From positions 94,240,001-94,304,000 of the forward strand of contig OZ287749.1 in NCBI GenBank assembly GCA_965649765.1: a stretch of DNA of 64,000 nt, read 5' to 3'. The notes under the pieces are model-generated. The model searched no databases, had not been told where the DNA came from, and was given only the letters and a program-made list of their open reading frames with translations. Every line of letters starts with the position of its first letter. Positions within the stretch are counted from its first letter, which is position 1. This DNA comes from Bispira polyomma. Lineage: Eukaryota. Shown here in pieces: positions 12,208-57,049 of the stretch. Made by a program: the position numbers and the translations under genes.

Positions 12208-13258
12208 CACAAGCACTGCCTAGTAGTGTGCACCATGTAACAGATTCCTGAAAAAAGGAAAAATGTCCATCAAGTGAATCCCATCAGCAAAAAATCCCAT
12301 CAGGAAAATTGGCCATCAGCAATTTTCGCCGAAATCGCTCTATCTCGCACGGTTAAGGAGAGACTCAAATTTATGTTTTTCCATTTTTGGCAGAAATTCA
12401 AAAATTCAAAATGGCCGCCATTTTTGGGGAGAGGAAATTTTTTTCAAAATTGCCAAGAGTACATTGATTAGGTACCCTGTGGGTCGAAAATTTCAACGAA
12501 ATCGCTCTATCTCGCACGGTTAAAGAGATAGAAGCAAATTTGTGTTTTTCCAGCTTTGGCAAAAATTCGAAAATTCAAAATGGCCGCTATTTTTGGGGAG
12601 AGGAAAATTTTTTGAATATTGCCTATAGTACATTTCTTAGATACCCTGTGGGTCGAAAATTTTGATGAAATCTCTATCTCGCACGGTTAAGGAGATAGAA
12701 TCAAATTTGTGTTTTTTTCATTTTTAGCAAAATTCGAAAATACAAAATGGCCGCCATTTTTGGGGAGAGGAAATTTTTTGAAAATTGCCAATAGTACATT
12801 TCTTAGATACTCTGTGGGTCGAAAATATTTTGATGAAATCACTCTATCTGGCACTGTTAAGGAGATAGAAGCAAATTTGTGTTTTTCCATTTTTGGCAAA
12901 AATTCGAAAAATCAAAAAGCAATCCCAAGCAAGCTATTGACCTAACTATTGCTCATACCAAATTTGGTAAAGATATGTCAAATATTTTTCCTTAAAATCC
13001 CCGAAAACCAAAAAAGTACATAAAAGTAAGTAAGTAGCTATTACTCAGTTAGCTATAGAGCTATCTTCACCAAAAGCAATCCCATGCAAGCTATTAACCC
13101 AATAAACACCCTTACCAAATTTGGTAAACATAGGATGAATACTTTTCCTTGAAATGACTGGAAACCAAGTGTGACGGACGGCGAACGCCGGACGGCGGAT
13201 GCTGAACGCCGGAAAAAGCAAAAATAATATGTCCACCCCCCACTGGGGTGGACATAAT
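12208..13258 (+). mobile_element. Helentron-associated non-autonomous element (HINE / pearl-like) carrying a ~168-bp internal satellite
   Basis: About 3.5 tandem units start at 12331, 12498, 12667 and 12835 (GAAATCGCTCTATCTCGCACGGTTAAGGAGA...). They are followed by a GACG-type microsatellite (~13172-13212) and a 3' hairpin TATGTCCACCCC-ccact-GGGGTGGACATA (13228-13256). The 5' end is approximate. Confidence 0.7.
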
Positions 13259-42031: not shown

Positions 42032-42361
42032 TATGGTGAAACCGGGGTTTGGCTTTTAGTACGAACCCCAACCGCAGAACCTCAAAGTGATATAAAAGGT
42101 CAACGGCAGTCTGGAATCGTGGTAGTTATCTTGAGAAGTTCAAACTAAAAGGAGCGCCATATTGGAAAAGCTTTATATTCGCAGCCTTTGCTGTTGGAAA
42201 TCAACAGTTGAGGCATTCTACAAATACAAGAGACTACACAGTTAGTTGACTGTGTATATAACAATGATTAGTGCCAGCTCTGTGAAGTGTTAACAGCACA
42301 AGCTTCAGGGCTGGAGCAATAACATAACAGCAGCTAGGTTAGTGCACAAGAGTTTACTTTA
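42032..42361 (+). repeat. 5' LTR
   Basis: TATGGTGAAACC...GAGTTTACTTTA, matches 49667-49996; TATAAAA at 42091-42097. Confidence 0.95.
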
Positions 42362-42362
42362 T

Positions 42363-42381
42363 TGGTACCAGAAGTGGGGTT
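42363..42381 (+). promoter_or_regulatory. Primer binding site, complementary to the tRNA-Leu(TAA) 3' end
   Basis: TGGTACCAGAAGTGGGGTT, 1 nt after the 5' LTR. It is the reverse complement of ...AACCCCACTTCTGGTA-CCA, as recalled for metazoan tRNA-Leu(UAA). Confidence 0.8.
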
Positions 42382-42390
42382 AAAGCCAAT

Positions 42391-45300
42391 TTGCCAGTGG
42401 ATTCTGAGATGATTATTGTGTCAAGTGGAGACAACAAGGGAGCTTTGCTACCAAATCTTCTAGTGAAATCTGCTGAATTTATTCCAGTGCAGCTAATAAA
42501 TGACACCGAGGAGCCAATTGTTCTACGTGGAGGTCATGTGTTGGGATATGCAGTAGAATGTGAACATGTGTTGAATGAGATAGAAGATAACATTTGGGTG
42601 AGGACACAGTGTCAGCAACAGCTTCCAGAGCATCTACAGGGTCTGTTCGAGAGATCTGTGAAAAAAACTGACTACTGATGAAGCTGAAAAAGTTAGGACA
42701 TTGCTGATTAATTATCAGGACATATTTTCCAAAGGAAGCCATGATTTGGGATGCTTTACTGAGATCAGACACACAATGGATACTGGAGAGGAAAGGCCTG
42801 TGAAGCAGTCCATGAGAAGAATGCCTTTAGGTTTTGAAAACGAAGAGGAGGAAAACCTTAAGCTGATGTTAGACATTGGTGTTATAACAGAGTCATCATC
42901 AGACTGGGCATCTGCTCCAGTACTAGTGAGAAAGAAGGATGGAACAGTTAGATATTGTGTGGATTTTAGAGCGCTCAACTCAAAAACAGTAAAAGATTTG
43001 TTTCCGTGACCTTCGATTTCTCAGTGTATAGACCAACTAGCAGGAAATATGTATTTTTCGACTCTCGACATGGCTAGCGGCTATTGGCAAATTGAAATAG
43101 ATGAAAAGGACAGGCATAGAACTGCATTTATCACTAAATTCGGTTTGTTCGAACATAGGCGGATGGCCTTTGGACTTTGCAACGCGCCGGCTACTTTTCA
43201 GCGTGTAATACAGTTTGTCATGCGTGGCTTGACATGGGATAAAATACTGGCCTACATTGATGATGTGATTATTTTAGGGAAAAACTTTGAGGATCACCTC
43301 GATAACCTCCATCTGACCTTCGAAAGGTTCCGAAAATACAACCTGAAACTAAAACCCAAAAAGTGCAGCTTGTATCATTCTGAAACATTATTTCTGTGAA
43401 AAGTTGTGAGTCCTGAGGGAGTATCAGTGAATCCTGAGAATATACAGAAAGTGCAATGTTGGCCAATACCAAAATCAGTTAAAGATGTGGAGAAATTCCT
43501 AGTTTTTCTGAACTACCACAGAGAACACATAAGAGATTATACAAAGCTCACATCAAAACTCTATCTATTGACTGGGCTACTTTTTATTGGGGGGAGGAAG
43601 AGCAGGAGACATTTGAAACATTAAAAGAAAAATTAGTGACTGCCCCCATTCTTGTATATCCGAATGCAGATGACGTTTTTGTGTTGGATACGGATGCTTC
43701 CAATCACTCCATCGGAGCGGTACTATCACAGGTACAAAATGAACAAGAAAAAGTCATTTGCTACGGAAGTTTTGTGCTTACCCCAGAACAAAGGAAGTAT
43801 TGTGTGACAAGAAAAGAACTATTGGCTGTGGTACGATTCACAAGACAGTTTAGACATTATCTGTTAGGACGGAAATTTCTACTAAGAACCGATCACAACA
43901 GTTTAACGTGGCTTCTACGGTTCAAATACATCGAGGGACAGTTAGCACGCTGGCTTGAGGAGCTGAGTCAGTTTGATATGACCGTTCTTCACCGTCCTGG
44001 TACAAAGCATGGGAATGCAGATGGATTATCCCGGATTCCGGATGATTATACATTTTGTGATTGCTACAAGGCTGGGCTAGATCCGTCACTGTTGCCATGT
44101 AAAGGTTGTAAATATTGCACCAGAGCCCATAATCAGTGGTCAAGGTTCAGTGAAGAAGTGGATGATGTGATCCCATTAGCTATGAGAACTATTAGTGTAG
44201 AAAAGCCTATGGAGCCGTCGAATACTTGGATCACCGGTTATACGTATGAGCAGTTACAGGATGCGCAAATATCCGACCCATGTTTGCAGAAATTAATAAG
44301 TTGGATCTCTAATGGCCTGGAGCCGGAACAAAAGGATTTATCCCTATGTAGTCCGGATGTAAAGTACTTTTACTGAAACAAGCACATTTAGTGTATAACA
44401 ATGGACTATTGTATTATCTGTGGAAAGATGAAGTAAGTGATTGGCCATTGCTTATGATTCCAACTAGTTTAAAAGAAAAGGTTATGTCACTTAACCATGA
44501 TATGCCTTTAACTGGTCATATGGGGATCACAAAGACAACAGCTCGCATAAGGAAATCGTATTTGTGGTACGGAATGACTGGAGATGTCGAGTTATTTGTG
44601 AAATCTTGCGGGGTTTGTAACAGAAACAAAAAGGCCAGTGTGAAGCCGAAAGCGCCATTGGGACAGTACCATGCTGGTTCACCTCTAGAACGGGTTCACA
44701 TTGACATTCTTGGACCATTTACACCAAGCGCTAGAGGTAATCAATATGTACTGGTAATTATGCACCAGTTTACCAAATGGTTGGAATGTTTTCCGCTGCC
44801 GCATCAAAGTGCTGAAGAAGTTTCCAGATGTGTAGTCGACGGATTCATTTCAAGATTCGGTTGCCCTTTAGACATACATACCGACCAGGGTAGAAACTTT
44901 GAAGGGAAGTTATTTGCGTCTGTGTGTGAACTGTTACAAGTTGCTAAAACCCGTACAACGCCCTATAGACCATGTTCAAATGAGAACGATACAATAGAAC
45001 AATCCTACAGTTAATTAGATGTTTTTTGAGTAGCAATCAACAAACGTGGGATGAGCATCTTCAACAGTTAGCTGGGGCTATTCGTTCTACAATAAACAGA
45101 AATATCGGTTTCACTCCTAATTTAATGATGCTGGGCAGGGAAGTTATGCTACCAGTAGATTTAATGATGGGAACAATTGACAATCGGTATGATAGTGCAG
45201 CAGAATATGTGGTTAAGCTAAAAAACATTTTAAAACAGGTGCATACATTGGGTAGGGAGACTTTGTTATCCTCACAAATGCGTCAGAAAAGGGACTATGA

Positions 45301-45841
45301 CTTACGACTTAAAGTGCACACCTACGAAGTTGGAGACCTGGTATACAAATTGGACTCGACAAAGAAGGTAGGTCAAAGTCCTAAGTTACAACGGATCTGG
45401 AAGGGTCCTCTGCTGGTGGTTAAAGTTATTTCTCCAATACTCTTTAAAGTGGCAGAGAAAAAGAAAACCTATGTCTTACATCATGATAGGTTAAAGCCCT
45501 GCAGGGACAGAGAGGTACCACTTTGGTTAAGGAGAAAAAGAAATAATTTGTTACAGAATTTAGCAGAGACTCAAGATGATTCTGATCCAGAATCTATTGG
45601 CCTGAACATTCTATTTGATGAGACCAATGTAATCGAAAGTAGTAATGAAGTTATTAACAGTGATACCATTGTAGATAATAACCAGGCTGAGATTCCAGAT
45701 AATGTAATTAATGTAGAAGATCCCTTATCCAATACGCATGAGGACCTAGTTAGTGATGCATGTATTTCAGGCCGATTACCACCTAGTAGTAGAGGACGAA
45801 AGCGGAAGCAGCCTGGTCATCTAGCAGATTACCTTACTTAA
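42391..45841 (+). pseudogene. pol: Gypsy pol (RT, RNase H, integrase) with at least 6 disruptions
   Basis: RT: WASAPVLVRKKDG, YCVDFRALN, FSTLDMASGYWQI, MAFGLCNAPATFQR, YIDD. RNase H: LDTDAS, RKELLA, RTDH, NADGLSR. Integrase: H..H..CGVC, VHIDILG, HTDQG, GPY-like WKGP. In-frame TGA at 43007 and 43397; frame changes near 42670, 43580, 44370 and 44980. Confidence 0.95.
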
Positions 45842-45960
45842 GAATCTGTTATGTAGCTTGTATGGTTCGGTTCAGGTGAAGGTTTAGTGTAAGTTACTAA
45901 AATGCTCTTGTAATCTAACTGTTTATTCATGTGGTGTTGTTTTGAAATGCCTTATTGCAG

Positions 45961-47031
45961 ATGCCGCGGGGAGAGTCTCCCTATGTAAGGGGTCGCCAGC
46001 GAGGGGGCTCCGGCCGGAGAGGTGTAGGTGGAAGAGGATGAGGTCAGAGCCGCGGACACGACGTCTCTGGTGGTTACAGGAGTGGAGGGTATCGCCCTTG
46101 GTACCGTCCGTATGGTAGGGGTTCACGCCCAGGTAGTGTCAACCCCCAGGTAAGAGGTAGAGGGCGAGGGAATCAGCCTGAACCAAGGGGGCCGCGGGCA
46201 GGTCATGACGTTCCCCAGGTAAGCCATGAGAGTGTGGGTCTCTGTCATGAGGAAGATGGGAGAGCACCTAGGCAGGTAAGCCATGCAAGTGTGGGTCTCC
46301 GTCATGAGGAAGATGAGAGAGCACCTAGGCAAGCAGGACAGGTAAGAGGGCAGGCTGGTTCAAACGTTCAGACAGGGCGGAAACAACAGCATAGTGAAAG
46401 GTCCTCTAACACTGGTCCTGGTAGTAGGTATGGTGGTAGGGGTCATTCCGGGAACCATGGGCAACCAAGTCGCACCAACTGGACCCATTGGAACAAAAAC
46501 ACAGGTGCTTCAAGGGCACCTGAAACCATACCTGTTGAAGTATCCTTAACATCGCCACAGTCGACCAGTAGGGAAGAAGATGAGGCAGTAATAAGTATGC
46601 TGACCCAGATATTTAGCCTGGTAAGACTAGAAGTGATTAAAACCAGAGTATTTCATCCTTCAAACAGGGTAGAACCCTTTAACCAGGCACTGCTGATGGA
46701 ACGATGTTTGAGAGACATTAGGATCCAAATGGGCAATCAAGCAGCCCCACCTTCATCTGCTTTGGGGACACCAACACCAAAGTACCAGGAACTCCCAAGT
46801 ACGTCGGCTACCCAGAGTAGGCAAATGCAACCAGCACCGGGACATACCTCAGGAGCTAGTGTGCAAACTAAAGCTGAGGGCAAAAGCAATGTGTCGCCAG
46901 GCAATGTCTATGGAGCGGCACAAGAGGATTCCGAGTTTCAAGCTGTGAAAAGGAAGTCCTATGCTCAGCAAGATAAGAAGGTATTCCCTACAACAAAGCC
47001 GCAAGATAAAACAATACAAAATGCGGGCTGA
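45961..47031 (+). pseudogene. N-terminal part of the accessory ORF (RG/RGG-rich, disordered), one in-frame TGA at 46039
   Basis: Acceptor-like TTGTTTTGAAATGCCTTATTGCAG immediately precedes ATG 45961. Reads MPRGESPYVRGRQRGGSGRRGVGGRG*GQSRG...RGRGRG in the same frame as ORF 46234-47031. Confidence 0.65.
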
Positions 47032-49213
47032 GGGAAAGTGGCAAGTCGTTGGGTCAAGGAAGAGGAATTTTAAACCTAAACCAGGGCCAAGCGAGCCTAA
47101 AAAGTCTAAACCCGAAGTTAGAAAAGGTGTGGGGAAGGATACAAGGCGAAGTGGCGAGTCGGATGTTGTCACAAACCGAGTTCAGCCTGTCAAGAGAAAG
47201 GGTCCCCCTTACGAAGAAACGCCTGATGGTCCCTCTTTCAAAAAGAAGAAAAGACCTGCATGTTTTATGAAGGGTTGTGGAAAACCTCAGGCGCACATGA
47301 GGAAACACGTCATAGGGAAGCACCTACCTGAGGGTTTTAATACCGCGAGGGAAATGACGGATGATAAAAGAATGGCATCGTTGGAAGGTTTCGTGATAAC
47401 CATTCAGAACCTGTTGGGATGTAGCAATTATGAGGAACTGCTTCAAAAAGTTCAAATGCAGAAGTTGTATCCAGATCCTAGTCGAGTGCACCTCGAGACA
47501 TCAGAGGACGACTATCGTCTAATGGATCATTTTCAACTCTGGCTGTCAGGAAGTCATTTAAAGTGCACTCCCAATCCTAGTCCACCAAATTGTATAGCCT
47601 CGCTTGTGCATTGGAGGGTTGCAGCCTGCATGATAAACCATGTAGGGGAAGACAAGGCACAGGCCAAAACTTCGAAAACTCCAAGTATTGAAGTCCGTAT
47701 TGGAGACGTGTCAGGTGCGACGGCTAAGACAGAAGATCCTTTGGAGGCAACTGTTGTAAAGAAGGTGGTAGAGCCAACCTCTCCAAGTAAAAGAAAGGTG
47801 GGACTAACTCGCAAGACAAAATCCATCCTGTCTAGAGTCCTAACACAATCTGTAGCAGAGGCTATAAAGCAAGCACGGCAAGGAGAACCAGGACCAAGTG
47901 CGTCAGCTGAGGCTGAGTCTAAGCTGATGGATACTGATGCACTAGTTGGTGAACTAAACGTGGCATTGGGTTTAACTGACAGCGAAACAGATGCAGAAGC
48001 AAAAGAAGCAAACTCTGCAGTAACCCAGATGGAGGTGACAGAAAAACCTGAGGCTGGGCCTAGTGACAGTGAAGCTGGGGCGTCCAAGTACAAGAAAGGT
48101 GAATCGTCCTTTGCAATGACTGCCACGGAGGTGTCAAGGCGGTATAAGGCTGGAGAATTAACACAGTCTCAGTTCTCCCAGATTATCTTCGTGAATGAGA
48201 AGGAGTCAGCATGGGAAGAAGCAAAGCCATCTTACAGTGAGATATTACAGAAGCCTTCAGCTGTGAAAGTAAAGCCACAACCTCAGATGAAAGACGTTGG
48301 GAAACCCTGTTCAGAGTTTAGTTGGGAGAAAAGGAGATCAACTTTGGGAACCTGTCCGGAGTCACGAAAGATACCATTTGTTGACTCACATATGCACATG
48401 GACAAGCTTAAGGAAATGACACGCATGACCAAATTGGACGACTTACTACGGGTGGGTCCTATGCCTGAAGTGCCTGTACGCTTGGAAGCTGCAGTAGCAA
48501 ACTTTTGTTTTGAAATACTAAGTCGTGAGGAGATCCTCGTGTTTAAGAGGGACAATCGGCTATCCTTTACCTATGGCGTGCACCCAAAGCTAGCAAGGTC
48601 TATTTCACCAAAAAAGCTGGAGATTGTAAAGTCTTCCATTGAAAAGGATCCTCGATGTGTCGGGATTGGTGAAATAGGAATGGAGTTTACCCATGGTTTT
48701 TCCAGGTGGCGTGAACATCAAGTCAAGTTGTTGCGAGAACTCCTTAATTTTTATGTCAAAAAACAGTGGTCAAAGGTGATAGTGATCCATTGTCGAGATT
48801 TCAGTAACTCGCAGGACGCCAGTGATTTGTGTTTGGCTGGAATGACAGATATAATTAAAGAAAAGGACAAAAAGCAAAAAGTGCATAGGCATTGTTATAA
48901 CGGGGGAATGAAGGAGATGAAAAAATGGCAGGAAAATTTTCCTGGGATACTGTTCGGATTCACCAGGTTATTACTGCGTGCATCACGACACCCTGAAGTA
49001 GATCAGGTAGTACAGGAACTGCCTTTGAAAAAGATACTCCTGGAAACAGATTCCCCGTATCTGCTAGCCCCAGAACATTATAGCTGCACCTACAACACTT
49101 GCTACGGGGTGGAGGTTATAGCAAGAAGGGTAGCGGAGTTAAAGCAGAGTACAGTGGAGGAGGTTCTCAGGGTTACTTCTGAGAATGCCAAAAAGCTGTA
49201 CTCGCTGAGGTAA
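47021..49213 (+). CDS. Retrotransposon-borne protein: NLS, C2H2-like Zn finger, low-complexity linker, C-terminal TatD-family nuclease (48377-49213)
   Basis: Uninterrupted 730-codon frame. FVDSHMH, YGVHP, VGIGEIG, VIVIHCR, VHRHCY, ILLETDSPYL and ARRVAELK...TSENAKKLY match the TatD pattern. CFMKGC-x9-H-x4-HLP at 47261-47329. Confidence 0.9.
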   Translation: MRAEGKWQVVGSRKRNFKPKPGPSEPKKSKPEVRKGVGKDTRRSGESDVVTNRVQPVKRKGPPYEETPDGPSFKKKKRPACFMKGCGKPQAHMRKHVIGKHLPEGFNTAREMTDDKRMASLEGFVITIQNLLGCSNYEELLQKVQMQKLYPDPSRVHLETSEDDYRLMDHFQLWLSGSHLKCTPNPSPPNCIASLVHWRVAACMINHVGEDKAQAKTSKTPSIEVRIGDVSGATAKTEDPLEATVVKKVVEPTSPSKRKVGLTRKTKSILSRVLTQSVAEAIKQARQGEPGPSASAEAESKLMDTDALVGELNVALGLTDSETDAEAKEANSAVTQMEVTEKPEAGPSDSEAGASKYKKGESSFAMTATEVSRRYKAGELTQSQFSQIIFVNEKESAWEEAKPSYSEILQKPSAVKVKPQPQMKDVGKPCSEFSWEKRRSTLGTCPESRKIPFVDSHMHMDKLKEMTRMTKLDDLLRVGPMPEVPVRLEAAVANFCFEILSREEILVFKRDNRLSFTYGVHPKLARSISPKKLEIVKSSIEKDPRCVGIGEIGMEFTHGFSRWREHQVKLLRELLNFYVKKQWSKVIVIHCRDFSNSQDASDLCLAGMTDIIKEKDKKQKVHRHCYNGGMKEMKKWQENFPGILFGFTRLLLRASRHPEVDQVVQELPLKKILLETDSPYLLAPEHYSCTYNTCYGVEVIARRVAELKQSTVEEVLRVTSENAKKLYSLR

Positions 49214-49654
49214 AGAGGCTATCTGTAGGGGGTAGGAAGTGGCACCGACGTAACAAGTACGGTACTGCGTTCTGGGCAACCAGGGTGATTAGCGATTACC
49301 TAGATAAAATCAGGGGGTATATTTGGTAAGGGTGGAGAATGTGTAACTTGCAGCCTAGAATATAGTGGATGAAGGTATGTAACCACCCAAGTAAAATCTA
49401 TGGACAACTATGGACAATTGTAAAGTATGAGCAGCTATTTTTATTTTTAAAAAAAGTAATCACCCTGGTAAAGATTATAACATCTATGGTCAGTATAAAG
49501 TAAAAAGTAAATTTAGATGAAGTTTATATCATCTATGAACATTGTAATAAAAGTAAATTTAGGTGGTTGCAATAACGTAAATATATGAACTTTAAAAGTA
49601 GTATTTCCAAGCAAAATAATGTAGAGTCCAGGAGCTGTCGAGGTGGCCTATCAT

Positions 49655-49666
49655 GAGGGGGAGAAG
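49655..49666 (+). promoter_or_regulatory. Polypurine tract
   Basis: GAGGGGGAGAAG directly abutting the TG of the 3' LTR. Confidence 0.9.
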
Positions 49667-49996
49667 TGTGGTGAAACCAGGGTTTGGCTTTTAGTACGAA
49701 CCCCAACCGCAGAGCCTCGAAGTGATATAAAAGGTCAAGGGCAGTCTGGAATCGTGGTAGTTATCTTGAGAAGTTCAAACTAAAAGGAGCGCCATATTGG
49801 AAAAGCTTTATATTCACAGCCTTTGCTGTTGGAAATCAACAGTTGAGACATTCTACAAATGCAAGAGACTACACAGTTAGTTGACTGTGTATATAACAGT
49901 GATTAGTGCCAGCTCTGTGAAGTGTTAACAGCACAAACTTCAGGGCTGGAGCAATAACATAACAGCGGCCAAGTTAGTGAACAAGAGTTTACTTTA
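49667..49996 (+). repeat. 3' LTR
   Basis: TGTGGTGAAACC...GAGTTTACTTTA, followed by the ATAT TSD. Confidence 0.95.
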
Positions 49997-51388
49997 ATAT
50001 TAATCTAATAAATTAAAATATTAATATTAAAATAAAGTTAACAGCTCGAACAGCAAAAATATAAGCAAGTAAGCATAAATAACAGAATGCATAACTTTTT
50101 TATCCCTCCTAGCTACCCTAACTTTAAAAATAATTAAAGGGTGGTCACCCGAAAAAAGGGTACCCATCTATGTCAAAGTGTGTCGACATTTAGTAGTCAT
50201 ATACTTTTGCTGTCTCAGGAAAAAAAGAAAAAGATTTGTAGATTATTGTGGGTTTATGCATAAGCTAATTGATATGTTTAAAGTACTGTGTATATTATGT
50301 TAATGTTTTGAAATGGTAAAATTTAACAACTAACACCTCCGTTTAAGTTTACTGTTTTGATAGAAGAATGGCGATAATACAAGATTTGTCGAAGTTGCAA
50401 ATGTGTTGTTGTGCCACTGTTCCAACGAGTTTTCTGTCATCGGCAGTGCCTTGAATTTGTAATGTACGCACAAGGGACAGACAATCTAGTGACATTACAG
50501 CCTATGACTGGTGACTAGGTCTGCATCCCCCCCCCCCCCCCCCGCCCCCACTTCTCTACAGAATGACTAACATGATATATTAAACCTAACAATATGCTGA
50601 ATACACCTTCACCAAAATATGGCACAAATTCACTATATGCACATGACAGCCCTACCATACTATATACAAATTATGGACCCATTTACAACGATTGAACTTA
50701 CTGCTTTGCAATAAACCAAAATATCTTTGCCAAATTGTAACTGCTACTTTAGGCATTATGGGCATAATGCCTCGTTAAAAACAAGTGATATTTTTACAAC
50801 TTTATGTTGTGTTTAGAAAATTGACAAAAAACCACCAATTTGCAAAGCAATGCCGTTACACCATCAAGTAAATAAGGCTAAACCACCAAGGTGCTAAACC
50901 TCATGTCTTCAGTAAAGTGGTGCAATGATGAAATCATTTTAATGGGCGTTTGATGACAAGACATATTGTAGTTTAATTAAATTACTACTTGATACTTAAG
51001 CCATGATCGGGTCTGTATGTTTCACGGCAATATTCGTTGACATCTTATTTAACCTCTCACAAACTCAGATACCTAAAAAGTTAAAGTAGAAAATTGGCTA
51101 TTAAGTTTAAATCTTTTAACCAGAAGTGCCCAAGTTTAAATATTTTTTTGTTCACATAATTATTCTGTTTTGTGTGTGTAGTGTATCATACCCTGCTTTA
51201 GTTGTAATCCAGCTTGCAAGAATCATAGCTTGGGAGTGTTAGTTGTATAGAGTTCACTTTTGATCTTTAACCCATTATTTAGGGTCACAGGAATACTGGG
51301 CCTTGTGGGTAACACACTCGCTTAGGATTGCAGAGTACCTGGGTTCAATCCCAGTTTGGGGCTCCTAGGTACGATGCATAGTGGTCTG

Positions 51389-51480: not shown

Positions 51481-51759
51481 CTGGTATTGGGCTCTAACCG
51501 AAGTAGGGAGGTTAATCAATGTTAAATGCTCATCCTCAGGCCTCTTGCTTCAGTTGCAAGAAGTGGTTGGAATATAAGTTTTATAAACTAGTAGACACAA
51601 ATTCAATTTAAAACAATTAGAAAAATATTGTGGGACAGGAAATGGGTATATACAATTGAACACTTGTGATGTAAAGTTTTAAATTTGTATTAATATCTCC
51701 ATTTTTACAAGGTTTCCATATTGTCTTTCAGCAGATTCAGCTACAATAACAAAAACAAA

Positions 51760-54700
51760 ATGAAGAGTGCAGTTTCTAAAGGCATGCCATCTACCCACGT
51801 CAGTTTTAAAATATGGACTGCAAATAAAGATATGACGAAGAAGCCTCGTCTCCTTGTTAAAGAGATGGAAGATACATTTAAAGCATCAGCGAACAAAGTT
51901 AAGGCAGAGCAGATGAAAAAGTATATGAGAAATCAGTTTGAGTTCTTTGGTGTTACTGCACCAGAAAGAAGAAGTTTGAGCAAGAAGGTGATCTTAAATA
52001 CACAGTAAAACCTCTGATATCCAAACACATTAGGCAAGCCAATATTTTCTTTAGATAATTAAAAGGTCAGAAAATTTTAAAATAAAACAACAGTAACATT
52101 GAAGGCATAGAAATGGTTTCACAAAATGGAATATTCAGAATTAAAAGTTCAGCTAATAAAAATTTTGTGTGGCAAGTGAAATCTCTTTTTTCACACCAGT
52201 CATTTATGATTGTCAAAAGATTGTGGTTCCCTAAGTCAGGGGTTACCAGTCAGAAGGCCACCTTAATTGCCATCTTTTATTAACCAACATTTACAATCAC
52301 TAGTCCAGCGTATATTTTATTAATAAAGAATTAATCACTGTACCTACTCACTGAATAGTTAACTATTCCTGGCCACGTCATTTGATTTTTTTTTTATTTA
52401 TGTGGCATTTTTCCCCCTATAATTTCAATTGATTAAATGGCTATATGAATACATGATGGCGATGTAACAATATATTGCCTCAGAAACAATAATTTAACAT
52501 AATAATAACATTTTATAAATGGCTGTATCTATGAATACATCACATGCATGATGGCGATATAACTATACATGTACTAATTCAAAAACAATAATGTAAAATA
52601 ATACTATAATTTTTAGTGAAATGTTAAAGACAATTAAATTGTTAATCAAGGTGGCATTTTGGGGTGGCGTTCTTGTTTGGTGGCATTCGGACAGTATTTT
52701 AAGTCAGGATGCTGAAGTGGGTACGCATCTTCCTCATCCAGACTAAGAGCTAGAGTATTTTTTGCACACACTAAGTTTGTGTTTTCACAAGTATTGGTTA
52801 GGGGATACAGAGGTGCAGCACAAAGGTCTGACCTCACTTTGGTCATGTTAGTTTTGACATTGACCTTAAAAATATTGTCCAGTCGATTTCTTGGAAATGA
52901 CTAGTTACAGGAAGTTGGCTTATAAGGTTTAGAACTTTATATACATTCAAATTAAAAGAAATTTCATAAAATACTTTGGGGTGTCATAATCAAAATCATT
53001 GAAAATATTTGTAATTTATTTCATAACCAAAATGTTTTTAAATATTTTATAAAGTCCTTCCATCTGAAAAGAGTAGTTAGTTTACAACAAATGTGCTTAT
53101 TTATTTAAAAAAAATTCAGATTATGGAAAAATAATGATCACAATGTATTGGCGAGATTTATGTTGGCACCTTGTGTATATCTGCGTTAAAGCTTAATTGT
53201 AGTTTTTCTCTGTGTCTCACAGTTTATGACTGCAGCCTTGTCCCAAGGTGAACTGTACGCATTGGCTGCCATCTGCTGGGAGAAAACACAGAGAGAGTTT
53301 CAATTGTTTGGTTATGAGCTTCTAGAAAAAAGGTTTGCTAAAGGTTCAGAGATGTCCTCTAAATGGAAATTGTGTATTCTTATATTAGAGGCATAGACAT
53401 TACTCTATCTTTACTATTTTACAACTTTTCTTTACATTATTGTCCTCAATAAATAGTCTGTTAAAATTTGTTAAAACAGCTTATACAGTAACATTTCATC
53501 TGCCACTGTGGTCTAGTGGGTAAGACACTGGCTTAGGAACTCGGAGGACCTCAGTTCGATTCAAGCCTGGGCCGACCAGGTCCAGTCAGATACATAGTGG
53601 CCTGGTTGACCACCTTAAAATGGCGGTCCTCTGTCACTGAGTCCTTGCCTCGAAAAATTACATTGGTTTCTGAAATTCATTATAGAATTCTGTTTAAAAT
53701 CCAAGTCACGACTTTCAAAGCTGTTGTCACAAGGGCTGGATCTAGAGCTTTCTTAATCTCTGTCCCAATGTTATGGAATAGTATCCCAGTTGAGCTTAGA
53801 TCACTTACACCCCTCTCCCCTTAGTTCCCTCCCTGTACACCCCACATCCTTCCTTATTGCCTGGCTTTGTTTTTGGGACTTCTCGATTGGCTTACTGATT
53901 CTGTTGTTGCTCTTTAGAAGATGCCATCCATCAATAAGGTGCGTTAAAAATATAAAACCATATGCACTTACTAATAATTAATGATGGATAATTAATGATA
54001 AATTCTCTCTTAGTTAGCACGTCTTCCTTCACTATTGAAGCAAATGACATTGTTTTTACTTCTCTTTTATAGGCCAGAGTTATTGCTGCCCAGGAGTGCT
54101 CAGTATGATCCTATGGAGTTAGTGAAGGCCTTGGTAGTGACCAAAAGCTGGTGGGATACTGTTGACATGTTGGCCTGCAAAGGTGAGGGCTGCTTAAAGG
54201 GTTTATTGAAAATTAGAGAAAAAAAAGTGTAGAATGACTTTACCACTTTCAAGTCTATTAAAATGTTGCGTAGGTGTCTTATAACATTGGTATTACATAC
54301 ATTTCAGAGCACTTCTTTTTCACCAAAAAACCATAAACACACTTAAGTACATTGTCCAAGGGTGCAAGCACCAGGCATCAAACCTAGGGCCCCCTGTCTT
54401 AAACTCAAGCACTCTACCCACAAGGCCACAGAGACCACAAATGATAAAGTTTCTGTTATCCCAGAAAAAAATTGCTCTTCCAACCTATATCGATAATTAA
54501 GGGGCTAGAGTGTAAAGTTTCCCAACCAGACACTATAGTGAAAATAGACTGTTAATATGTGCAGAAATTCAGGGTTGGCGCTAGGATTTTTTAAAGTGGG
54601 GTTTTGGGGACCCCACCTCTCATAAAAAGTGGGGTCCCGGAGTAGCTTCCATGCATCTGATAGATAATTTTCATTTTTGTGACAAATATAATTTAAAAAT

Positions 54701-57049
54701 AATGAAATATATACTATTGTATTTCCACACTTATCAAACAACAGAATATAATAACATAGAATATGAAAATTTAAGTCAAACACTGTGAATTAAAAAAAGT
54801 TGGGCAATTTTCGTATTACCTAGGCCCTAACAGAATTTTGACTTTTAGAAACTACCCATTCAAAACGCCACGACCGGAAACACCAAATCAAAACATCAAG
54901 ATCTGCCATTTTTGCTAGATTGCTAGAAACTGTGATTAAACTTCAAAATATAGAAAAATTAAAAAGGGAAAATGGTGATTTCTTACTTTCAAATAAAGTC
55001 TGCATCCTAATGGACGCATTGTATGTTTTAATTTGCGTCCGCTGACGAAAATTCCGCGTTTTTAGATACTCGGGATTCCGTAAGCGCGAACCCTGAGAAA
55101 TATCACATAATATCCAGTATCACAGTATTGAGGTTTAGTGTGATCTGTAAGGTGTATTTTGTTAAGACTAACATTTAAAAATATACACACATATTCTTGT
55201 GCCTTGGATTTGCATGGTTGGGAATTTGTAATCTTTCTGCTTGAAGTTCTACTGTAAATACAGTAAAAACTCTATTATCCAAACGTATGTCCGAATGTTC
55301 AATTTCATTAAAATTTTTAGAAATGTCTATTTTTAAGTGATTCTGTCTTTGTCTCCAACCTCAGAATGACCACAAAGATCTTAGTGTACATGCTCACTGT
55401 CTTTCCTCAGTCCAGACTTTGATGGATCACTTTAAATCAAAATAAGTCCTAACAAAACTTAATTCAGTAGCAACAAAGATAATGAGGACTTAAGATCATT
55501 AATCCCAATTGTACTCCTGGGTAAATATATATTATCTTCTATTAACATCAAAAACCTTGGTGTTACTTTTGACTGCTGTCTCACTTGATATGCACAGCTG
55601 CAACATTTGTCGCTCCTGGAACTATGACAAAAGAATAAGAAATTGCTTGTCGCTGGATACTGCAATTACTTTGGCTAACTCCCTTTTGTTTTGGGTAATA
55701 AAGTCTTACATAAACAAGTTAGAGTCCATTCAAAAGTATCTATGTGTTCCTCCTTCCTTGCTACTCATCTTTCCTTCAGCCACTTTAGAGGGGAAAGAGA
55801 CTTTACCCCTCCTTGTTCTGTTGATGTAGTTCTGGGCCATCTGGCAGTAGCAGACAAAGATCATACCCTGTCAGTGCTAGAAGACTGGATCCACAGTGGG
55901 AACATGTGGCTCAAACGCTGTGCAATACTTTACCAATTGAGTTACAAGAAGAAAACCGACCAGCAGAAACTCTTCAGGTGTGTTTGTGTTGGCACATTAC
56001 GGTACTGTGATATTGGCATGTGAAGGACATATTGGTTAGGTGTGTTTGTGTTGGCACATTACGGTGCTGTGACATTTGTATATGAACGACAAATTTTAAT
56101 TATTGGTGCTTGTTCTCTGAAAAGGAAGTGTCCACATATTAGCATTAGTAGTCATCAGTAGGCAATGGTGCATTCATGGGCCAAGAAAGAATTGATTAAA
56201 TTTTAAAGCGGATTCAGGTACAAAAGTGAATCCAGGAATTGTTATCCTACCGCTCAACTAAGTTCCCTTTTAATTTTACATTTTGTGAATTATCTATGAT
56301 ACGGACTACATCTTTGCTCTCACAAGGTTTTTAGCTGATGACAGAAGAGAGCTTGAAGTGCTCTAAATGTATGTTGTCTCAAGGTGTGGGGGGGCCACGG
56401 TAGCCTACTGGTTAGCAAGCATTGCGCTTCACAATCACTGGTCTCTCACCTCTGTTATCAGCTGGCATGGGTTCGACTCCTGTCGATGCTTATGTAGGAA
56501 GGTGGTAGTTCCTTACCATGGGCCGCTGGTTTCAGTTCAGAACCTTGATCAACTGTATGCAGTGTTTTCTCCAGCGTTTCCAACTACCCGTCCCAATATA
56601 ACCTAAACAGGTACTAGAGTGGACGTTCAATATCCCAATTCAAAAGTCTCAAGGTGTGTAGATGATAATAGGAGCTTTAACTGATAAATATATGTTGTCT
56701 CAAGGTGTGTAAATGATAATAGTAGCTTTAACTGCTATAAATATATGTTGTCTCAACATGTGTAGATGATAAGAGCTTTGAGTACTATAAATTTATGCTC
56801 CCTCAAGATGTGTAGCGGATAAGAGTGAGCTTCGCGGGTATCAATTATAGTTCTCTATATTACTCTATATATTTCAGGTACTGCCTCCTCTGCTGCTCTC
56901 ATAAAGACTTCTTTATACAGAAAGCTATCGGTTGGGCTTTAAGGGAATATGCCAAAACCAGTCCCAAAGAAGTGCAGAAATTTGTGAATGCAAACAAGAA
57001 GAAACTGGCCCCATTAAGTGTCAGAGAGGCTTTGAAACATTTCAAATAA
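51760..57049 (+). CDS. alkD: AlkD-like DNA alkylation repair glycosylase (HEAT-like repeat family), 5 coding exons, 255 aa: 51760-51987, 53223-53332, 54073-54182, 55830-55977, 56878-57049
   Basis: All introns are GT-AG with compatible phases (0, 2, 1, 2); total 768 nt. Motifs KAEQMKKYMRNQFEFFGVTAPERR, CWEKTQREFQ, VTKSWWDTVD, WIHSGNMWLKRCAILYQLSYK, FFIQKAIGWALREYAKT and LAPLSVREALKH are colinear with Bacillus cereus AlkD as recalled. Confidence 0.93.
53665..53985 (+). mobile_element. LINE 3' fragment in alkD-like intron 2, preceded by a tRNA-like SINE head (~53505-53580)
   Basis: IHYRILFKI...GSRAFLISVPMLWNSIPVELR, then a TAA-rich tail. Confidence 0.6.
54570..55095. mobile_element. hAT-like non-autonomous element; longer copy lacking the left TIR at 57541-58252
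   Basis: CAGGGTTGGCGCT...AGCGCGAACCCTG termini. About 240 bp is near-identical to 57541-57743 and further blocks match 58056-58252. TSD is not clean. Confidence 0.7.
56330..56830. repeat. ~52-bp degenerate tandem repeat interrupted by a SINE
   Basis: TATATGTTGTCTCAAGGTGTGTAGATGATAATAGGAGCTTTAACTGATAAA-like units on both sides of the SINE. Confidence 0.7.
56389..56645 (+). mobile_element. tRNA-derived SINE (same family as 19723-19971), 13-bp TSD
   Basis: High identity to the 19723 copy; TSD GTCTCAAGGTGTG (56376-56388 and 56646-56658). Confidence 0.85.

Follow-up and report, generated by a model that had tools for sequence, protein, structure and literature searches.

A TatD nuclease fusion gene behind pol in a decayed Ty3/Gypsy retrotransposon of Bispira polyomma, with a predicted splice acceptor at its start codon

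Behind its pol region, a decayed Ty3/Gypsy retrotransposon of Bispira polyomma carries a third open reading frame (ORF3) encoding a large TatD nuclease fusion. We regard the following, taken jointly, as almost certain: the start of ORF3 at position 45961, its nature as a single gene, its domain order, its intact metal ligands, and the two lesions that interrupt it in this copy. The fuller interpretation, in which positions 45961 to 47031 are the 5' third of a nuclease gene that is expressed from a spliced RNA and whose product acts in the nucleus on the element's own intermediates, appears fairly probable.

RESULTS

Structure and decay of the host element

The element spans positions 42032 to 49996 (7,965 bp) and is a single insertion in the window, i.e., the whole 64,000-nt stretch of B. 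polyomma DNA that was analyzed (Table 1). It is a decayed Ty3/Gypsy LTR retrotransposon, and this copy is dead. The Pfam matches in pol run from reverse transcriptase (RT) through RNase H to integrase, i.e., in the Ty3/Gypsy order, and pol is split into six pieces with changing frames (approximately six apparent breaks). The primer-binding site (PBS) is one that we take to resemble the 3' end of tRNA-Leu. Directly behind it, gag and most of the protease are absent (approximately 630 nt lie between the PBS and the RT match), which we read as a probable internal deletion in the window copy. The LTR termini are TG..TA and not TG..CA, and the TG start of the 5' LTR has been lost through one change.

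The host DNA is AT-rich. Directly left of the 5' LTR lies a second RT remnant (PF00078; positions 41193 to 41917, minus strand), which reads as a non-LTR type. Downstream of the element, two pieces of PF08713 (DNA alkylation repair enzyme; positions 51694 to 52008 and 55679 to 56023, plus strand; profile positions 3 to 45 and 115 to 159) are probably exons of a host gene. The window also contains a tandem array of 23-nt units (35618 to 36077) and an array of ~169-bp repeats (12336 to 12949). Since the translation of the latter matches the first 59 residues of protein P0109, that protein record is evidently a chimeric call over a related repeat.

TABLE 1 Features of the retrotransposon and of ORF3 (positions in the window)
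Feature	Position	Strand	Evidence
Left target-site duplication, ATAT	42028..42031	.	Identical 4 bases at both flanks
5' LTR, 330 bp	42032..42361	+	14 mismatches (12 transitions) versus 3' LTR
Primer-binding site, TGG start	42363..42379	+	Sequence, directly after 5' LTR
pol remnant (RT, RNase H, integrase)	42382..45841	+	PF00078, PF17919/PF17917, PF17921, PF00665, PF22938
CTAAC branch-point-like motif	45915..45919	+	Sole YTRAY in spacer; putative function
T-rich tract without AG, up to and including CAG; predicted splice acceptor	45920..45960	+	T share, AG-free length
ORF3 start codon and RG-rich N-terminal motif	45961..46023	+	14/21 residues identical to P0196 start
Premature stop, TGA	46039..46041	+	P0196 homologous on both sides, without stop
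Arg/Gly-rich low-complexity region	46042..46560	+	Sequence
Three-helix domain, UBA/CUE-like topology	46570..46734	+	62% identity to P0196; in 13/202 natural proteins
Frame break, frame 1 to frame 2	47002..47014	+	P0196: frame 1 to 47001, frame 2 from 47015
Basic cluster KKKKR, predicted nuclear localization signal	47240..47254	+	Precedes zinc finger
Family-specific domain, C2H2-type ligands and helical subdomain	47258..47671	+	In 142/202 natural proteins
TatD nuclease domain, class II (HxH)	48380..49204	+	PF01026, E = 1.9e-38
Polypurine tract	49655..49666	+	Sequence, abuts 3' LTR
3' LTR, 330 bp	49667..49996	+	Versus 5' LTR
Right target-site duplication, ATAT	49997..50000	.	Identical to left flank

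ORF3 is one gene with two lesions

Frame 1 is open from the ATG at 45961 to a stop at 47029, except for the TGA at 46039. This upstream ORF contains two stops (one of them terminal) versus 17 and 31 in the other frames, and a best-frame count of two or fewer occurred in 0 of 2,000 shuffles. The initial annotation had proposed the ATG at 45961 as the start, with one in-frame TGA, and had fused this frame to the downstream TatD ORF into a gene of ~1,083 aa. The single TGA is borne out, positions 45961 to 49210 comprise 1083.3 codons, and the rest of the proposal agrees with natural proteins, 13 of 202 of which join both parts. The most informative is P0196 (1,017 aa; head of a 115-member cluster), which is continuous, has no stop, and begins at the homologous Met (14 of its first 21 residues are identical). 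Its identity to the window is 43% over 229 columns of the upstream frame and 44% over 741 columns of the TatD ORF.

The shared Met at the start of P0196, together with its match first to the upstream frame and then to the whole TatD ORF, makes it evident that the two frames are one gene and that the stop and the frame break are lesions of the window copy. The P0196 alignment leaves position 46039 itself uncovered, and this site is absent from the best 40 of 661 substitution rows of the contig data; an origin of the TGA from CGA through CpG decay, as put forward in the initial annotation, would be one possibility. Since pol of the same copy has approximately six breaks, two in ORF3 fit its general decay. 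A frame junction at ~47026, as annotated initially, is ruled out by the P0196 match, which leaves frame 1 and enters frame 2 upstream of that position (Table 1). Programmed readthrough or frameshifting was rejected, given that no slippery heptamer was found at the frame break, that no stable RNA structure was found behind the TGA (z = 0.96), and that the natural proteins are continuous.

Other copies were examined in three contig sets (at most two samples, from one study), in which 219, 236, and 231 contigs covered positions 45400 to 48400; such numbers on a 3-kb stretch indicate a multicopy family. Near 47010, two contigs per set depart from the window in length, in a way that agrees with a continuous frame, and these contigs account for a third to all of the local depth, depending on the set and the row. 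Among the indel rows listed, those at 46332, 46421, and 46570 and the pair at 46529/46562 keep the upstream frame, while those at 46928 and 47578 disrupt the frame in some other copies. Among the best 40 of 661 substitution rows by support, 37 lie inside ORF3 (3 upstream were omitted), and third codon positions account for 10 of 18 substitutions upstream of the break (frame 1) and for 12 of 19 downstream of it (frame 2), or 22 of 37 in total (p = 0.001), versus 3 to 4 in each wrong frame.

A predicted splice acceptor abuts the start codon

The pol stop (45839 to 45841) is followed by a 119-nt spacer that ends in CAG (45958 to 45960) directly before the ATG at 45961. Among 630 AG sites of the element, most of whose competitors sit in coding sequence, the AG at 45959 and 45960 ranks first for both T share (0.51) and AG-free length (65 nt), features that were picked after the site had been seen. 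A branch-point-like motif lies approximately 40 nt upstream with no AG between, an arrangement found at 7 of the 630 sites, including this one. A strict acceptor pattern occurred in 0.25% of spacer shuffles and a loose one in 1.5%; in the host flanks, 18 of 6,291 AG sites match the acceptor features equally well (0.1 to 0.3%). A YAG directly before the ATG arose in 3% of the shuffles, and 18 of the 630 element AG sites are followed by ATG. The acceptor was originally described as pyrimidine rich. The CAG, the branch motif, and the AG-free tract were all found, but that wording was too strong, since the pyrimidine share (0.61) ranks only 24th of 699 and the tract is instead T rich.

Approximately 90 ATGs precede 45961 on unspliced RNA, so scanning ribosomes could not get to this start codon. 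Given the acceptor signals, translation of ORF3 from a spliced subgenomic RNA is likely. A donor scan returned one 7/9 match (42338, in the 5' LTR), which is indistinct from background; the donor may have been lost from the window copy together with the leader.

Several diverged contigs start, stop, or rejoin the window sequence within 45924 to 45975, around the acceptor and start codon, and the partial contig tables hint that this block is better conserved than its flanks. Another contig fuses the 5' LTR end and PBS directly to position 46674 in ORF3 and is a further deletion derivative; its left deletion end, directly behind the PBS, is common to the window copy. A break that recurs at this place might represent a splice donor or a hotspot of deletion.

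Domains of the predicted protein

The ORF3 product comprises, in order, an Arg-rich disordered region (IDR), a three-helix domain, a basic cluster, a C2H2-helical domain, another IDR, and TatD. In the reconstructed window copy, it is predicted to be a soluble protein of ~1,080 residues. No 19-residue hydrophobic window exceeded 1.41 in the two window pieces or in three intact relatives (maxima, 1.0 to 1.4). With no transmembrane stretch, and with TatD as the sole Pfam match, the possibility that ORF3 is an env gene was rejected.

An RGG box consists of repeated RGG triplets or of closely set RG dipeptides in a disordered region. The initial annotation assigned one to the N terminus; the dipeptides are indeed closely spaced in the disordered start (13 RG in the upstream frame, 11 of them in the first 120 residues), but the frame has a single RGG. 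P0196 also has one, and five other close relatives have none. RG dipeptides in the first 40 residues number 4 in P0196 and 0 to 3 in the other 19 long relatives listed. The starts of close relatives are 13 to 20% Arg, as RS and RD repeats without RGG. To judge from these compositions, the label overstates the N terminus. The associated idea of a condensate-forming region is weaker than that of a single gene: just a short RG-rich start is common to the window and P0196, its nearest relative, and more distant relatives are RS/RD rich and lack RGG. Within the Arg/Gly-rich region, there is a 57-nt in-frame tandem duplication (46216 to 46329), and a Trp-containing block (~46465 to 46527) is common to the window and P0196.

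The upstream half had been described as an IDR only, which overlooked the conserved three-helix domain. When the central part of the upstream frame served as the query, 1 protein among 22 candidates was retrieved, namely P0196, with 62% identity there. Pfam returned nothing for the upstream frame, including this domain, and the ESM Atlas returned nothing usable for the domain. The core of the structural model has a pLDDT of ~90. Compared with solved structures, it gives CUE/UBA rows with Z scores of 5.0 to 6.8 (e.g., 6h3a_B, Z = 5.8, rmsd 3.7, 57 aligned; 1otr, Z = 5.4, rmsd 2.2, 49 aligned), which are indistinct from those of unrelated bundles. A UBA/CUE assignment of this modeled domain is therefore a lead only.

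The stretch of 10 residues preceding the first Cys of the middle domain contains at least four Lys or Arg residues in 30 of 84 relatives, versus 8.5% of 1,415 background windows. Recruitment of the protein to the element's RNP had been suggested; the basic cluster would point to the nucleus and not solely to a cytoplasmic RNP. The middle domain itself (140 residues; model pLDDT, 93.7) has the Cys-Cys-His-His ligand spacing in 65 of 86 relatives, and each of these four residues reaches at least 90% conservation in an alignment of 71 rows. It has no Pfam match, including none to a Pfam zinc finger. Foldseek searches of the pdb and viral sets (E = 0.001) returned no match for the model of this domain or of the three-helix domain. 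In VIA-align, the best Z score for the middle domain was 3.0, which is no structural match and does not in itself prove a new fold. The ESM Atlas returned unnamed clusters only (scores, 0.91 to 0.93), among whose few recorded members Cnidaria or Mollusca are commonest.

In the TatD ORF, which stops at 49211 to 49213, residues H481, H483, E575, H614, H648, E699, and D701 are all present. We take the TatD metal-ligand motif to lie at these positions, which agree with the YcfH alignment. Across 155 family domains, H481 is found in 144 and H483 in 143 (10 domains have gaps), and the Glu, His, His, and Asp ligands are found in 154, 154, 155, and 154, respectively. The best solved relative is YcfH (profile E = 1e-52), and TATDN2 was absent among the solved-structure matches. 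In a tree with 30 prokaryotic TatD sequences (the usable ones among 52 fetched loci; eukaryotic TATDN1 to TATDN3 were left out), 129 family domains group together in a clade of their own (support, 0.88).

Natural relatives

In 13 of 202 natural proteins, which fall into six clusters, one chain unites the middle domain with the upstream helical domain. Five of these (P0196, P0153, P0161, P0166, and P0171) extend through the full TatD domain; the last four have the domain order of the window ORF3 in a single chain. These relatives are predicted proteins, taken as contiguous ORFs. Their multicopy clusters (60 members for P0001 and 115 for P0196) suggest that the relatives reside in LTR elements.

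A word-based search with the TatD ORF retrieved 1 protein among 8,000 candidates and missed P0196, and no protein was retrieved when alignment A3 was run against sequences of 1,121 to 3,200 residues. A DNA scan for the context of the relatives gave 10 viral and 80 metagenome loci (24 to 39% identity), none of which carried the middle domain or matched pol; these loci are prokaryote-like TatD. Three distant family members (P0056, P0130, and P0133) carry an N-terminal NADAR domain (PF08719) in place of the Arg-rich start, two of the matches lying above and one below the curated cutoff. In three further proteins (P0020, P0135, and P0083), the three-helix and middle domains are present and the chain ends before TatD; they may be truncated copies or domesticated forms. 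P0020 also has a very long RS-rich repeat region.

DISCUSSION

Cellular TatD enzymes act as 3'-5' exonucleases and as AP endonucleases (PMC10085689), and TATDN2 strips R-loops of their RNA strand (PMC10711561). We propose that gag-pol would be removed, as for env, with an intron that begins at a donor in the vicinity of the 5' LTR or leader and ends with the CAG at 45958 to 45960, and that the resulting spliced subgenomic RNA would allow translation of ORF3 from the ATG at 45961. The basic cluster would then direct the protein to the nucleus, where its Arg-rich start and zinc domain may bind RNA or DNA, and TatD may act as a 3'-5' exonuclease or an AP endonuclease or may strip RNA from RNA-DNA hybrids like TATDN2. 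As an outcome, hybrids would be cleared and ends trimmed or repaired during reverse transcription and integration. For this functional part (nuclear entry, nucleic-acid binding, and care by TatD of hybrids, DNA ends, and integration gaps), we put the chances at slightly less than even; against it stands the occurrence of the basic cluster in only 30 of 84 relatives.

The same gene, expressed in the same manner, might instead serve counter-defense by degrading surplus cDNA, RNA-DNA hybrids, or small guide RNAs on which host sensors or the piRNA pathway rely; the Arg-rich start and the UBA/CUE-like domain would then dock the protein on silencing granules or ubiquitinated proteins. We consider this role possible though rather doubtful. 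The long-retained intact active site, the Arg-rich disordered start of all close relatives, and the CUE/UBA-like topology of the three-helix domain would suit it, and a silencing-related role has been raised for rotifer DEDDy ORF3s (PMC5408684). However, the CUE/UBA fold match is weak, the three-helix domain is found in only 13 of the 202 proteins, and the basic cluster points to the nucleus. An even broader reading is likewise possible though rather doubtful. In it, a widespread, undescribed invertebrate Gypsy lineage would have replaced env with a spliced gene for a modular counter-defense nuclease, composed of an Arg-rich IDR, a module resembling ubiquitin-binding ones, a zinc-binding domain with a novel fold, and an active TatD, and would use it against host silencing or nucleic-acid sensing.

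Expression of the single gene could also proceed without splicing, from an internal promoter or through internal ribosome entry in the 119-nt spacer, with the CAG there by chance. The frequency of YAG before ATG in shuffled spacers, the 18 ATG-flanked AG sites of the element, and the donor scan speak for this, but the coincidence of a branch motif, a 65-nt AG-free zone, and a T-rich tract (0.25% of shuffles; 0.1 to 0.3% of 6,291 host-flank AG sites) makes it unlikely. Far less likely still is the capture of a TATDN2-like host gene by this single copy as a passenger with no role for the element: 219 to 236 contigs per set cover the 3-kb stretch of pol end and ORF3 with codon-biased differences, the relatives form clusters of 115 and 60 members, and the ORF is intronless and lies between pol and the polypurine tract. 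The least probable reading, which we consider largely refuted, holds that there are two separate ORFs or that recoding yields little of the long protein. In its favor, both the stop and the frame change are present in the window copy, and the length difference near 47010 is missing from part of the contig depth; yet P0196 and four more natural proteins run without interruption, and both a slippery heptamer and a stable structure behind the stop are missing. Our preferred reading remains a nuclease gene with a spliced message and a nuclear product.

An additional ORF behind pol is generally read as env. In this element, the env slot holds a large, long-conserved nuclease fusion that includes a domain unmatched in Pfam or among solved structures. 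The true start, the domain order, and the probable acceptor turn a "host-like" TatD annotation into a testable retrotransposon accessory gene. They also provide a second nuclease family, besides DEDDy, for asking what use enzymes in the env slot are to the element. Annotators should also be aware that a long TatD protein in an invertebrate gene set can come from a transposon gene.

Enzymatic ORF3s are already known (rotifer DEDDy and GDSL), and for TatD in the ORF3 slot we found no prior report. No TatD inside an LTR element turned up in our literature search, whose scope left out Repbase and the majority of subscription journals, and a prior description is possible. The term "TatD" is absent from the main texts of PMC5408684 and PMC13524379, and TatD passages in PMC5408686 and PMC6962438 were rejected as prior cases because they are unrelated.

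The closest parallel is provided by the Juno and Vesta LTR retrotransposons of bdelloid rotifers, in which ORF3 encodes a DEDDy 3'-5' exonuclease or a GDSL esterase and is typically expressed from spliced messages (PMC5408684). As in those elements, an enzyme without a transmembrane stretch occupies the ORF3 slot after pol instead of an envelope protein, the cargo is a nuclease, a spliced message is assumed, and the role is unproven in both cases. Unlike the DEDDy proteins, the window ORF3 has a TatD TIM barrel, which is the last domain of a ~1,000-residue protein with two more conserved domains. The gene also resembles Drosophila errantivirus env (PMC13669377 and PMC13524379) in lying between pol and the 3' LTR and in having a predicted conserved acceptor at the ORF start; errantivirus env splice acceptors are conserved (PMC13669377). 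It differs from env in having no signal or transmembrane stretch and no fusion-protein match, and its product is a predicted soluble nuclease. Class II TatD enzymes are defined by an N-terminal HxH motif (PMC10085689), and the window domain shares this motif and the metal ligands with TATDN2, TATDN3, and Escherichia coli YcfH and YjjV (PMC10085689, PMC10711561, and PMC12709183). Unlike the cellular members, it is retrotransposon borne and fused to a C2H2-helical domain without a Pfam or structural match, while its long N-terminal extension is a feature in common with TATDN2.
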